From Eledone cirrhosa (taxonomy: Eukaryota): a stretch of 64,000 nucleotides of DNA. The position numbers and the translations under genes are program-made. This document shows, in pieces, positions 34,342 to 64,000 of the stretch. The stretch's first letter is position 1. Every line of letters begins with the position of its first letter. Below the pieces are notes generated by a model, which worked only from the letters and a program-made list of their open reading frames with translations, ran no database searches and was not told the DNA's origin. The stretch covers positions 28,210,001-28,274,000 of the forward strand of contig OZ024753.1 in NCBI GenBank assembly GCA_964016885.1, in the 5' to 3' direction.

Positions 34342-34557
34342 TCACAAAATAGTGCAGAGTCGTTTTTCTTTAAATGGGTTTTCCTTGACCGGATAAATCA
34401 AGGGGTCATTAGGTGCATTCTCATTGCAGTACTGGATGAGAGTCATGATAGTTTGGCTCATATTTTTCCGAGTTATTTTGTAGTTCAATCTCAGCAACTG
34501 TACCTCCTCTCTCAGAACCTTTCGAGACTGAATGGTGTGTTGGTTAGGGTAAGGCAT
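34342..34557 (-). CDS. G-protein gamma subunit-like protein B (71 aa, CaaX = CTIL)
   Basis: EEVQLLR...R..MSQTI..LIQYCNENAPNDPLIYPVKENPFKEKRLCTIL retains DPL, NPF, a basic patch and CaaX; caaaATG start; acceptor ttttttcaacag at 34589-34590. Confidence 0.93.
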   Translation of the reverse strand: MPYPNQHTIQSRKVLREEVQLLRLNYKITRKNMSQTIMTLIQYCNENAPNDPLIYPVKENPFKEKRLCTIL

Positions 34558-41240: not shown

Positions 41241-41808
41241 CTACTTGAATAGCAAGAAAGAAAAATATATACTCTGACATAATGTTGTAAGTTCGATTCC
41301 TAGACAGGTTGCTGCATTGTGTTATTGAGCAAAACACTATTTCACATTGCACCTGTACACGTAGCTGAGAGTGAATACCAGCAGTAGCTGGGGAGTTACT
41401 CTTGCGATAGACCAGCATCCTGTCCAGGGAGAGTCTTCTACTCTAAGTTGCTTAATGCCAAGGAAAGCAGGGATAAGCACTGGCCTAATGAGCCTTTGGA
41501 TTAGAACAGACTTTAGATAATTATGACATAATTTCTTCCCTATTTGTTCACAAAAAGTAATGTTTGAAGATGGATAGATGTATAGTTAGATAAATAAATT
41601 CACACACACAGATACATTCATATATATATATACACACACACACACATACAAAGCACGTAATTCAATAAAAGAAAATTCTGTTTTTATTATTATGTATTAT
41701 TTATTACTGATATAATTTTTTGTTATCTACTCAGTTTACTTTTTATATAATTTGTTCATTATTCATTATTTTGCACTCATTTTTATTTCAATGTATTTAA
41801 ACTCCATT

Positions 41809-42024
41809 TCATTTGAAGCACAGAATACATATGTTGTTATCCGTCTTAACATAAGGGTTATCTTTTTGTGGGACAAGCATGTGGTCTGAAGTTTCATTTT
41901 CCCTGCAATAACGAAGCAGTTCCTCTGTTGTTTGACTCAGATTTTCCCGAACCATGCTCTTCTCTCTGCGTAGCTCTTTCACCTCCTCCTTCAGTTGTTT
42001 CTGCATCTCAGCCTGGTAAGACAT
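41809..42024 (-). CDS. Divergent G-protein gamma subunit-like protein C (71 aa, ends CILCFK, no canonical CaaX)
   Basis: LKEEVKELRREKSMVRENLSQTTEELLRYCRENETSDHMLVPQKDNPY aligns with protein B and the GGL pattern; acceptor ctctgctgccatag at 42040-42041; minus-strand AATAAA at 41782-41787. Confidence 0.87.
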   Translation of the reverse strand: MSYQAEMQKQLKEEVKELRREKSMVRENLSQTTEELLRYCRENETSDHMLVPQKDNPYVKTDNNICILCFK

Positions 42025-42344
42025 GCGGAGCTCTATTGCCTATGGCAGCAGAGAGTTGGCAAAAAAATAAGGAGTAAAAGAACAAAAAAAAAAATACAGT
42101 TATCAGCAGAAGGTAGTAATTGGAAGCCATCGAATTGCTTCAGTACATTACAATGAAGGAAGCTGAAGAATATGCTAGGCAATGACAAGAATGACGAGGC
42201 CAAAGGATGACAATGGTAATAAATAGTGATAAGAAATGATGACATTGAAAATGGTCTATGAAGATGTCGAAAAGCCAAAAGATGAGGATTCTGAGAGATA
42301 TGTGTGATGCTGAGACATTCACAAACACCAGGATATATAGATAT

Positions 42345-42523
42345 TGCTGACACAAGAGAGAGAGAGAGAGAGGTATGATGACAAGAGAGAGAGAGACATA
42401 TATGATGACAAGAGAGAGAGAGAGACAGATATGATGACAAGAGAGAGAGAGATATGATGACAAGAGAGAGAGAGAGAGAAACAGAGACAGGTATGGTGAC
42501 ATGGGAGTGAGAGAGGTATGATG

Positions 42524-42588
<65 letters not shown>

Positions 42589-42885
42589 GCAGGTATAAGG
42601 GAGAGAGAGACAGCTATGATGACGAGAGAGAGGCAGCTATGATGAAGAGAGAGAGAAAGAGAGAGGTATAAGAGAGAGAGGCTGCTATGATGAAGAGAGA
42701 GAGCGAGAGAGAGAGAGAGCTGTGATGATGATGTGAGAGAGAGGGGGCAAGTGAGAGCTATGATGATGAGAGAGAGAGAGTGGGGGCAAGTGAGAGCTAT
42801 GATGATGTGAGAGAGTGGGGGCAAGTGAGAGCTATGATGATGTGAGAGAGAAGGGGCACGTGAGAGCTATGATGATGAGAGAGGT
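42345..42885. repeat. (GA)n / gatgatgacaag compound repeat just upstream of the G-gamma C exon
   Basis: Direct inspection. Confidence 0.9.
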
Positions 42886-44381
42886 AAACAAGAAATAAAT
42901 ACAACCTCTGAAAACAAAATATGGCAGTGGTATTGAGATGACAAAGACACAGCAAGAGAATGGTAGCAACAAAATGGCTGAAGTGAAGAGAAAGCAGGAT
43001 GAAGATGATGTCAATGATAAATGATTACGTATGACAATGAAAATATTAACAACTATAATAAAATGATATCAATTATAACAAAACAATAAAATATGATAAA
43101 AGTAACAACAAGTTGCAATAATGATGAAATCAAATATAAAAAAAAAGGAAAAAGAACTTTATAAGGAACAAACGAGCTATGAAATATAGAGGGGGGGGGG
43201 GGGGGGGGGGTTATTAGGAAAGAGTAATTTCAATTAGTAAGTGGAAGAAAGAGAAAGAAACCCTAGAAAAACCAACTAACAAAGGAATTTGGAGTGATTA
43301 TCAAGGCCTACTGTGCTAGTGATTACTCAAATCAGATGAAGAAAAGAAGTGAGTGTACCAGAGTAAAGACGCCCTTTGGTCACAAATGACCATGGGATTT
43401 GCACCTTTCTAGTTCCCCACCGAGGGACAAGTCCTTGAGTGTACTATAAGTTGGATAAAGTATCAACAGGAGTAAAAAGAGTTAAGAAGAAGAAGAATCA
43501 TCATAGGTTTTAATTAATGTAGAAGTGGTTTTGACATGGAAACATTCCATTCGGAATGTTTCCATGTCTATCAAATTTACTTGAAGCCAAGTTCTTCCCA
43601 GGAAATTTCAGGAAATTTCAAATCTCATGTCAGTTTTTGTTAAAGTCATTCTGACACTTTAACTAAAATTGCAACACAGAACTTCTATTGAGGCAATGAT
43701 AAAAACAAAATCTTGCGATTCAGACAATAACAGTAAGGAGTAGCAAGTGTGTAAGATGAGTTAAAAGAAATGTGCAAGGATAAGGAATAGTAATAGAAAT
43801 AATATTAAAAATAAAATAAAATCTGTAAATCTAATTGAATAAGAAGCAGAGGAATTGTAGGAAGAGAAGGAACTGGGAGGAGAGGATTTGGGGTAAGAGA
43901 AAGAACCAGGAGAAACAACTGAAGTATGGAAGTAGAAAAAGAAGGCATATTGAATGAAGAGTAGCAGAAAAAATAATTGATGATATAAGAAGAGGAAGGA
44001 GTAGTTAAAAGTAGAAAGTGGGAGTAGCTAAAAGAGGAAAAAGAAGCAAAAGGCAAAGAAATAATGGTTTCTGATTTAGGTCCAAGCCCAACAATTTGAG
44101 GGGAGGGGAAAGTCGATTAAATCGACCCCAGTGTATTACTGGTACTTGATTTTTTCGATGGAAAAAAGAATAGCAAGTATCACGATTAATAAATACTTGT
44201 TTTTAGTTGAAGTTCTAAGAAGCAACCCAGGAAAATATATAAATAGTAGCAGTTGACATACTGAGAGAGAGGTGTGTGTTGAAAGTAAGAGTAACAGAAG
44301 CCACCTGAGAGCTGAGGAGTATCATGAATTTAAGAGATGAAGGGCTACAAAAGGAGTCAAACTATAAATATCAATGAGTAA

Positions 44382-52527: not shown

Positions 52528-52587
52528 CTTTATAGGCTTATTTCAGTCTAATCAGCAGGTTTACTTCACTGAAGTAGTGGATGGCAG
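52528..52587 (-). other. Candidate 60-nt non-coding (5'UTR) exon upstream of the G-gamma cluster
   Basis: Minus strand atttttcttcttctccttgtag|CTGCC...ATAAAG|gtgagt: strong acceptor and strong donor 60 nt apart in non-repetitive sequence. Confidence 0.45.
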
Positions 52588-61914: not shown

Positions 61915-64000
61915 ATCATCATTATCATTTTACGTCCGCTTTTCCCTGCTTGCAAGGGTGGGACGGGTCTTATTCAGCACAGCATCTCTCCACTCGTCAT
62001 GGTCCTTCGTCATCTCCACCGTGAGCTTCAATGATCTAAGGTCTGTTCTCACCACCTCCGCCCATGTCCCTCGTGGTCCACCTCTACCATGTCTTCCCTC
62101 AACTGGCATCTCCTGGCACCTCTTCACTCATCGGTCATCCTCCATGCGCATCACATGTCCATACCACCCCAGTCTCCTCTCCGCACACTACATTCCATCC
62201 CTCTCAACACATTCATGCTGGGTCGCTCACGCACATTTACACTGCACATCCAACGGAGCATGCTTGCCCCATCTCTCTCCAGCCGTCGCACATCCTCTGC
62301 AGTTGCTGCCCATGTCTCACCACCATGCAGCATCGCGCTCCTCACACAGGCATCATACAACCGGCCCCTCGTACGCAGGGAGAACCCCTTCTTCGTCAAC
62401 AGAGGAAGCAGCTCCCCAAACTTCCTCCAACCCGTCCTTATTCTAGATACTATGGCCTCGGAACACCCTCCTCCCATGCTAATCTGATCCCCTAGGTACT
62501 GGAAGCCACCCACCACCTCCACAGCGCCCCCCTGCATCTGAAAAATGTGTCTATCAATGTGACTTCAACTGTCTAATTTCCCTGTACATCCACTGCACAC
62601 ATACTTCTCCCTACCTGTCAGTTTGCCTGCCATCCCGCTACATCTCTTGTGTACCCAGGATCTGCATTGTGTGCATTTTATAGAATTTATGCCAGTTCCC
62701 TTTCTGCACATCGAACATGGCCATTTCCCTGACGGAATCAGGGTTTTGTCCTCTTTTCTACTCATCAACACTTTTGTCTTAGCTAGGTTCACTCTCAGTC
62801 CTCTTGCTTCCAACTGCTGTTTCCATAGCCAGAATTTATTCTCTATCTCCTCTACTGATTCTGCTATAAGAACCAGATCGTCAGCACAGAGAAGTTCCCA
62901 TGGACAGCCAGTCTTAAACTCCTCTGTTATGGCTTGGAGGACTATAATGAACAAGAGCGGGCTGAGGACCGAACCCTGATGTACTCCTACTTGTATCTGG
63001 AATTCCTCACTAAACTCCATTCCTACCCTGACTTTACTGAGAGTACCTCTGTACAAAGTTTGCACTGTCCTCACAAGCCATTCCTCAACACCTAGCTTCC
63101 TTAGGGACCACCAGATGACAGATCGGGGTACCCTATCAAAGGCCTTCTCTAGGTCAACAAAGGCTAAGTATAGTGGCTTATTTCTCTCTAAGAACCTCTC
63201 TTGCAACTGTCTCACCAAGAAGAGGGCATCTGCTGCACCCCTCCCAGGCACAAAACCAAACCGCATCTCATCCAGTTTGACCCTTTCTCTAATTAGTTGT
63301 GCTAATATCCTTTCTGCCACTTTCATAACCTGATCTATCAGTTTTATACCCCTATAATTGCTCCTCTCCAGAGCATCCCCTTTACATTTGTAGCAATTTA
63401 TGAGAATACTGCTGCACCAGTCTTTGGGTATGACACCACCATATATAGCCTGATTGATGATGCGTGCAACCAGTCTAGTGCCCACATCGCCTGATGCCTT
63501 CAGCATCTCAGCAACTATTCCCGATGGTCCAGCAGCCTTACCATTTTTCATTTCCCTAATCGCCTCTTGGACCCTATATTTGTCAATCTCAATAGCTGGT
63601 CCCTCTGTCGGATCTAACAAGGGTAATTTCTCTCTCTCCCATTCGTTCTCCACATTCATCAGTCTCTCATAATGACATTTTCAGGCCTCCTTTTTCTGAT
63701 CATTGTACACCGGCATCATCCCGGACACATTTATCTCCAACAACATCCTGATTTGTATTGACACACTGCCTTGCAATGTGGAACACCGCACGCCTCTGAT
63801 CTTCCCGTTGCAGAACATTGGCAAACTTCCTACTCTCCACCTCCCTGCGTGCTAAGTACACCCGACGTTCAGCCTCTCTCTTAGTGGCTGTATATTCTTC
63901 CCTACTCCCACCCTTTTTCCAAGCCTTCCATGCTAGTCTTTTGTCTCTAATGGCCTTATCTACTGTGCTGTTCCACCACCAGGTCACTCTCTGTCTGGTT
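61915..64000 (-). mobile_element. RTE-clade LINE, 3' half, disrupted; runs off the window end
   Basis: ORF 62565-63659: KAAGPSG, NYRGIKL, FGFVPGRG, AFVDLEKAFDRV, GVHQGSVLSPLLF, CADD (YADD mutated); frameshifted continuations at 62151-62537 and 61930-62127; ATG-type microsatellite tail. Confidence 0.95.

Follow-up and report, generated by a model that had tools for sequence, protein, structure and literature searches.

How can an animal G-gamma subunit without a CaaX box be genuine, and by what means might it be held at a membrane? Prenylation at the CaaX box, whose Cys stands at position -4, is treated as obligatory for animal G-gammas and sets receptor coupling and beta-gamma translocation, as far as the available parts of the sources state (PMC9678972; PMC3508898), and the accessible text of a 2012 survey of ~150 eukaryotic G-gamma sequences gives CxIL as the animal consensus (PMC3508898). 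The question is raised by a locus of Eledone cirrhosa (GCA_964016885.1, contig OZ024753.1), of which a stretch of 64,000 nucleotides (positions 28,210,001 to 28,274,000), hereafter the window, was analysed. We found that one gene in it, G-gamma C, departs from the CaaX rule of animal G-gammas and is nonetheless real, conserved and expressed.

A G-gamma Gene Ending in CILCFK

Three G-gamma-like ORFs were identified in the window, all on the minus strand, and G-gamma C was the third in tandem:

19512..19745, minus strand: G-gamma A, divergent, ending CHLL (Pfam E 4.7e-4, under the curated cut-off)
34342..34557, minus strand: G-gamma B, with the canonical end CTIL (Pfam E 5e-13)
41809..42024, minus strand: G-gamma C coding sequence, 71 amino acids plus TGA, single exon
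41809..41829, minus strand: non-canonical C-terminus of G-gamma C, C66-I-L-C69-F-K-stop, read from the sequence and kept in runs X1 and X4

The G-gamma C ORF matched Pfam PF00631 with 40.8 bits (curated cut-off 27.1; E 2.2e-10). Its first ESM Atlas match was a GGL cluster (0.90), and its best named PDB match was human G-gamma13 (E 0.0016). The hallmark residues of the GGL fold were retained (L18, R26, S30, Y39, D47, and N56), and an NPY at residues 56-58, of the NP[FWY] type, was found within the extended tail. The AlphaFold2 model, built from a 16-row alignment, contained helices at residues 3-23 and 29-42 and a disordered tail (mean pLDDT 74.8, pTM 0.36, tail <50). Like animal G-gammas (PF00631), the protein has ~70 residues, a two-helix GGL core, the D-x-L and NP[FY] motifs and a 5' non-coding exon; unlike them, it has no Cys at -4, ends in CxxCxK, and carries D-H-M-L for the usual D-P-L-L/I. 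Considering that the GGL core residues are kept, the core likely pairs with a G-beta. The G-beta-like genes of this genome are multi-exon. Two such loci on one contig (C5:1322235-1324712 and C5:9757798-9760275; L008-L011, L016, and L017), 8.4 Mb apart, had equal exon spacing and scores, representing either a recent duplication or an uncollapsed haplotype.

The neighbours of G-gamma C keep the Cys at -4. G-gamma B was 92% identical to an Octopus bimaculoides protein, while G-gamma A had no NPF motif and lay on a very long branch. A fourth copy (L001), canonical and ending CTIL, was located ~0.65 Mb away on the same chromosome, and its cluster bears the name Octopus G-gamma-1-like. A search of the genome with the G-gamma C protein returned only the gene itself, in single copy, and its two neighbours, these counts being lower bounds. 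Each of the three tandem ORFs lies entirely within a single exon and has an AG shortly upstream of its ATG. Either the three are distinct genes, or one promoter might serve them as alternative last exons. Elsewhere in the window, ~8 kb at 10001-18000 had a GC content of 15-18% and probably consists of simple repeats.

The translation of G-gamma C ends NNICILCFK, with cysteines at -6 (C66, 41827-41829) and -3 (C69, 41818-41820), a stop at 41809-41811, and none of the Cys at -4 that marks a canonical prenylated animal G-gamma. The codons (tgt att ctg tgc ttc aaa tga) and the -6/-3 register agree with an earlier, sequence-only reading of this DNA. The tail described there is real as well, and the peptide spans 41809-41838, one codon beyond the range that had been given (41809-41835). 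Among 16 aligned G-gamma-like proteins, 13 had Cys at -4; the other three, namely G-gamma C and two proteins described below (P0001 and P0012), had Cys at -3 and -6.

Transcript Structure

Seven of the 14 listed runs were compared, with X2, X3, X5, X6, and the RAD-seq runs X12-X14 left out. The following features were placed around the coding sequence:

41683..41787, minus strand: 3' UTR stretch with three AATAAA/ATTAAA poly(A)-signal hexamers, starting at 41787, 41705, and 41688
42025..42039, minus strand: 5' UTR part of the coding exon, behind an AG acceptor, where the X4 contig departs from the genome
42040..52527, minus strand: GT-AG intron of the 5' UTR, 10,488 bases long, from the X4 loose end, with the donor AG/GTGAGT
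52528..52587, minus strand: upstream non-coding exon, seen in the contig over 52528-52556, with a putative 5' edge at an AG acceptor

A contig from X4, a second sample under the same organism label (depth 69), was identical to the window over 41660-42041 and then left the genome. Its 27 loose letters matched 52530-52556 exactly (0 such matches expected by chance), and because this match lies beside the AG/GTGAGT donor, the upstream exon is spliced to the G-gamma C exon. No run is recorded as RNA, and X4 was taken as RNA only because its contig is spliced. The upstream exon holds an in-frame TGA, so the start in the X4 form is the ATG at 42024. The same contig spanned the 3' UTR stretch without a joint. 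Within the intron, 42350-42900 is a degenerate purine-rich GA/GATGAT repeat array.

Animals do have an unprenylated GGL fold in the R7 RGS proteins, as an internal domain of large proteins. An embedding of this type, between DEP/DHEX and RGS domains, was contradicted by the in-frame TGA upstream and by the transcript contig, which reads unspliced past the stop into UTR. Unlike the R7 RGS domain, G-gamma C is a stand-alone ORF.

The sequence-only reading had left room for an assembly indel or a splice that restores a CaaX. Run X1 showed no difference within the ORF; X1 is possibly the source of the assembly and hence not independent of it. With the identity of X4 and X1 to the window, and with 0 of 330 single-base indels across the final 66 ORF bases restoring a Cys at -4, an assembly indel is ruled against. 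As for splicing, no joint or loose end was found inside the ORF in the X4, X9, and X10 contigs, from which rare isoforms drop out.

Could a CaaX be restored later, through an uncommon splice variant, A-to-I editing, or removal of FK to expose CILC? We consider this very unlikely. Coleoids edit their RNA heavily, and rare forms would escape the contigs. Against this, the X4, X9, and X10 contigs ran through the ORF unbroken, and A-to-G edits, taken up to three at a time, gave a Cys at -4 in 0 of 1793 sets; to our knowledge, no cytosolic protease unmasks a CaaX by removing two residues. CILC itself would be a good CaaX, with heat-map scores of 3.83 (Ydj1) and 13.8 (Ras) in the accessible data of PMC10320760.

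Conservation of the Tail

Contigs of a related organism (organism B, ~12% divergent) aligned over 41795-42028 with 28 differences, of which 24 were listed, and no gaps. Four runs of organism B covering 41809-41998 each showed 25 differences, and all four (4/4) had TAA where the window has TGA. Three of the four unlisted differences were placed by eye in 41795-41810, and the last falls, without an exact place, in 41812-41824. Of the 39 single changes possible in this interval, none gives a Cys at -4 and 29 keep the cysteines at -6 and -3. By this enumeration, organism B cannot have a Cys at -4. C66 is kept there, and C69 is putative, as it falls within the interval that holds the unplaced difference. 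Behind the TAA, N-E-V-stop follows in frame. Selenocysteine at the UGA of G-gamma C was rejected, since organism B has TAA.

Over codons 1-67 (codons 68-71 left out), comparison of organism B with the window gave 14 synonymous changes (37 sites) and 10 non-synonymous changes (164 sites), with a dN/dS of ~0.12 (Fisher p 2.7e-6). Judged from these counts, G-gamma C is under purifying selection. The gene structure appears to be shared too, because the loose end of the organism B contig X10 fitted the same upstream donor best, ranking it first of 1181 GT-anchored places (score 20 vs 14 for the next).

Another organism B contig, X9, had a loose end resembling 63518-63537 (3 mismatches), which was rejected as a first exon because it lies inside a LINE-like reverse-transcriptase frame. 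The open frame concerned (63303-63665, minus strand, 121 codons or more, GC-rich surroundings) resembles a LINE reverse-transcriptase ORF. X9 joins sequence of this kind to the G-gamma exon, through exonisation of a repeat or else through chimeric assembly.

A third close lineage was represented by P0001 (MBK3499513.1), which was 87% identical to G-gamma C, kept both cysteines, and ended CILCLK. This hypothetical protein comes from a 316-base contig deposited under Campylobacter fetus subsp. venerealis and is likely octopod contamination of the Campylobacter assembly; it is probably 5'-partial and, by length arithmetic, probably has its true stop. It was the one close match in a protein search among 5.8 billion proteins. 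Word-index searches with G-gamma C and with a three-row alignment (longer and shorter proteins left out; 1/1 and 2/116 candidates retained) yielded only P0001 and P0012, and HMMER against 50% representatives gave seven matches, one of them close. A metagenome scan returned one weak 25-residue match (L004, 48%), which was left out of the analysis. P0012, from Logan, is a distant G-gamma, ~41% identical, with cysteines at -9, -6, and -3 (CxxCxxCxx) and none at -4. It lies on a long branch, its placement in the 16-protein tree is unsettled, and it is not a proven orthologue; 2 of the 13 inner branches of this tree were well supported, and the branch of G-gamma C was also long.

These data bear on the suspicion that the ORF is an assembly error or a decaying, non-functional duplicate, which is the least probable of the explanations considered. 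In its favour are the near-total lack of annotation for the protein, with its single close match in the 5.8 billion proteins searched, and its long branch. Against this stand the identical, spliced contig from a second sample, the low dN/dS, and the frame, stop, and upstream exon kept in organism B. An untranscribed or broken ORF, the outcome that would have undone the sequence-only reading, is contradicted by the spliced X4 contig and the intact frame in organism B. The proposed check of the tail in relatives found the stop position kept in organism B and the CILCLK end in P0001. Together, the Pfam match, the transcript, and the conserved stop uphold the central claim of that reading, a genuine G-gamma without a canonical CaaX.

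Origin of the Tail and the Stop Codon

The TTC after CILC needs two changes to become any stop, as had been noted. The conclusion drawn from it, that simple stop loss is unlikely, was right in its codon count and weak as history, and extension of an old CILx end remains a candidate. CILC may be an old CaaX lengthened by two residues, because C66 lies 8 residues past NP[FY], close to the canonical offset of the CaaX Cys (6 residues in the 12 motif-bearing canonical relatives). Alternatively, it is possible that the TGA took the place of a third Cys, since it is one step from a Cys codon (TGY), a point that the sequence-only reading had missed, and the following feature adjoins it in frame:

41797..41808, minus strand: N-G-V-TAA behind the stop, yielding CNGV only if UGA is read as Cys

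Of the 63 single substitutions in the final 21 bases, only the 2 that turn TGA into TGY put a Cys at -4. A stop at the distance of N-G-V-TAA arose by chance in 12 of 136 places locally and in 4.3% window-wide, that is, in ~4-9%.

On the second origin, the visible end would be a stop gained at an old Cys, and partial readthrough of the UGA as Cys might still produce a hidden CNGV CaaX. We regard such readthrough as highly improbable. UGA-A is not a classic leaky context, TAA is not a Cys-readthrough codon, and chance alone accounts for a stop at that distance in 4-9% of places. The one-step path would suit it, as would the third Cys of P0012, which stands three residues past the second, and so would the Ydj1 heat-map score of CNGV, 3.33 against a cut-off of 3 in the available part of PMC10320760. 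The equivalent CNEV of organism B scores 2.20 in the same data, under the cut-off (PMC10320760). Functional readthrough is therefore not conserved, given the TAA and N-E-V in organism B.

How G-gamma C May Be Held at the Membrane

The sequence-only reading proposed that the subunit may be unprenylated, S-acylated on two cysteines, or modified at a non-standard Cxx end, and all three fates remain candidates. A membrane role of G-gamma C would need a different anchor, since mammalian G-gammas stay in the cytosol when prenylation is blocked (PMC10590752). We favour, at somewhat below an even chance, the reading that G-gamma C pairs with G-beta and is membrane-held by S-acylation of C69 and/or C66, with no prenyl group. 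First, its intact GGL core would fold onto a G-beta. The very hydrophobic ICILCF tail, together with a lipidated G-alpha, could then make a first weak membrane contact, upon which a DHHC acyltransferase would acylate C69 and/or C66, as at the CXX ends of RhoU and RhoV. Because a thioester is reversible, the dimer would cycle on and off membranes, in contrast to the permanently prenylated dimers of the CTIL and CHLL siblings.

The closest model comes from these Rho proteins. RhoU (Wrch-1) and RhoV (Chp) end in CFV and are palmitoylated at that Cys, not prenylated, according to the consulted parts of PMC6959303 and PMC4514874. Like them, G-gamma C belongs to a CaaX-type family yet closes with C-F-x, its Cys at -3 being followed by a hydrophobic residue at -2 (C-F-K here, C-L-K in P0001). 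Unlike them, it has an unrelated fold, a terminal K for V, and no polybasic/Trp signal; moreover, acylation is shown for the Rho proteins and predicted here. The missing signal counts against S-acylation, for in RhoV palmitoylation of the CFV end requires nearby polybasic residues and a Trp, as far as PMC6959303 reports in its available text, while the residues before the tail of G-gamma C are VKTDNNI, followed by the hydrophobic ICIL run.

Dual lipidation of a G-gamma is known from yeast Ste18. Arabidopsis AGG2, also dually lipidated, has two cysteines near its C-terminus, as G-gamma C has, one of them a -6 Cys that is S-acylated, according to the accessible part of PMC3508898. Both AGG2 and Ste18 differ from G-gamma C in that they retain a Cys at -4, which is prenylated first. 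The -6/-3 register common to G-gamma C, P0001, and the distant P0012 counts for S-acylation. Only three close lineages were recovered, and at a dN of 0.06 the conservation of the cysteines among close relatives is weak evidence. Organism B, moreover, has a putative C69 and carries I67N, which lowers the hydrophobicity of the tail; both count against acylation. In addition, mammalian G-gammas with the CaaX Cys changed to Ala are fully cytosolic in the available portion of PMC10590752, so that G-alpha alone may not deliver the dimer to an acyltransferase.

The same -3 Cys, shared with P0001 and P0012, could instead be prenylated by farnesyltransferase (FTase), with CFK serving as a shortened CaX motif and C66 perhaps palmitoylated afterwards, which we think unlikely. 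Three-residue ends are modified by FTase in a yeast reporter: with the human enzyme in yeast, 8 of 16 such ends exceeded 50%, CFV reaching 77.6% and CFT 32.2%, in the available data of PMC11152559. In the rows available from the same paper, CFK and CLK had 0 occurrences in the supplement, none of the CaX rows ended in a basic residue, and the best ended in I or V (PMC11152559). For the yeast enzyme, a K, R, or P at position X of four-residue CXXX motifs is restrictive, according to the accessible part of PMC10320760, and the terminal Lys therefore weakens this explanation. CFV, strong on the reporter, is nevertheless palmitoylated and not prenylated in native RhoU and RhoV (PMC6959303), and CaX prenylation of native proteins is left open by PMC11152559 itself, in the text available.

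Finally, G-gamma C might carry no lipid and act within a soluble beta-gamma, either as a sink for G-beta or in cytosolic or nuclear signalling, a reading that we also consider improbable. The three CaaX-bearing paralogues of the genome could serve the membrane role in its stead, and the cytosolic location of unprenylated mammalian mutants (PMC10590752) agrees with it. Precedents exist outside animals, cysteine-free type B G-gammas being common in plants and one Naegleria G-gamma having no motif, according to the available text of PMC3508898. On this reading, a hydrophobic tail with two cysteines would be superfluous, yet three lineages keep its length unchanged, and the -6/-3 register recurs. 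S-acylation of C69 and/or C66 remains our preferred, tentative reading.

Relation to Known G-gammas and Implications

CaaX-less G-gammas have been described in plants, and the Naegleria case is called isolated in the accessible part of the survey (PMC3508898). G-gamma C resembles these plant type B/C and Naegleria proteins in standing beside CaaX-bearing paralogues without a CaaX of its own (PMC3508898, available part). Unlike the plant proteins, which either end without a Cys (type B) or carry a long Cys-rich domain (type C), G-gamma C is an animal protein with a six-residue tail holding two cysteines. Our literature search, in which mostly abstract openings and few subscription papers could be covered, found no paper on G-gamma C, on any CaaX-less animal G-gamma, or on an unprenylated G-gamma as a dominant negative. 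A G-gamma from squid photoreceptors, unusual at its N-terminus, was reportedly cloned in 1992. The G-gamma C gene is nearly absent from protein databases, and its sole close entry is filed under a bacterium.

As a natural, selected protein, G-gamma C lends itself to testing whether a beta-gamma dimer can function through a reversible acyl anchor, through a three-residue prenylation motif, or lipid-free. All three outcomes would be informative, with the adjoining canonical siblings as controls. We hypothesize, with rather less than even confidence, that octopods have an unannotated, conserved G-gamma in which the permanent prenyl anchor was swapped for a reversible two-Cys palmitoylation switch, CxxCxx-stop. 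If this is true, octopods would have an animal beta-gamma dimer whose membrane residence depends on acylation cycling, and G-gamma C would possibly belong, with P0012, to a wider, overlooked class of G-gammas ending in CxxCxx.
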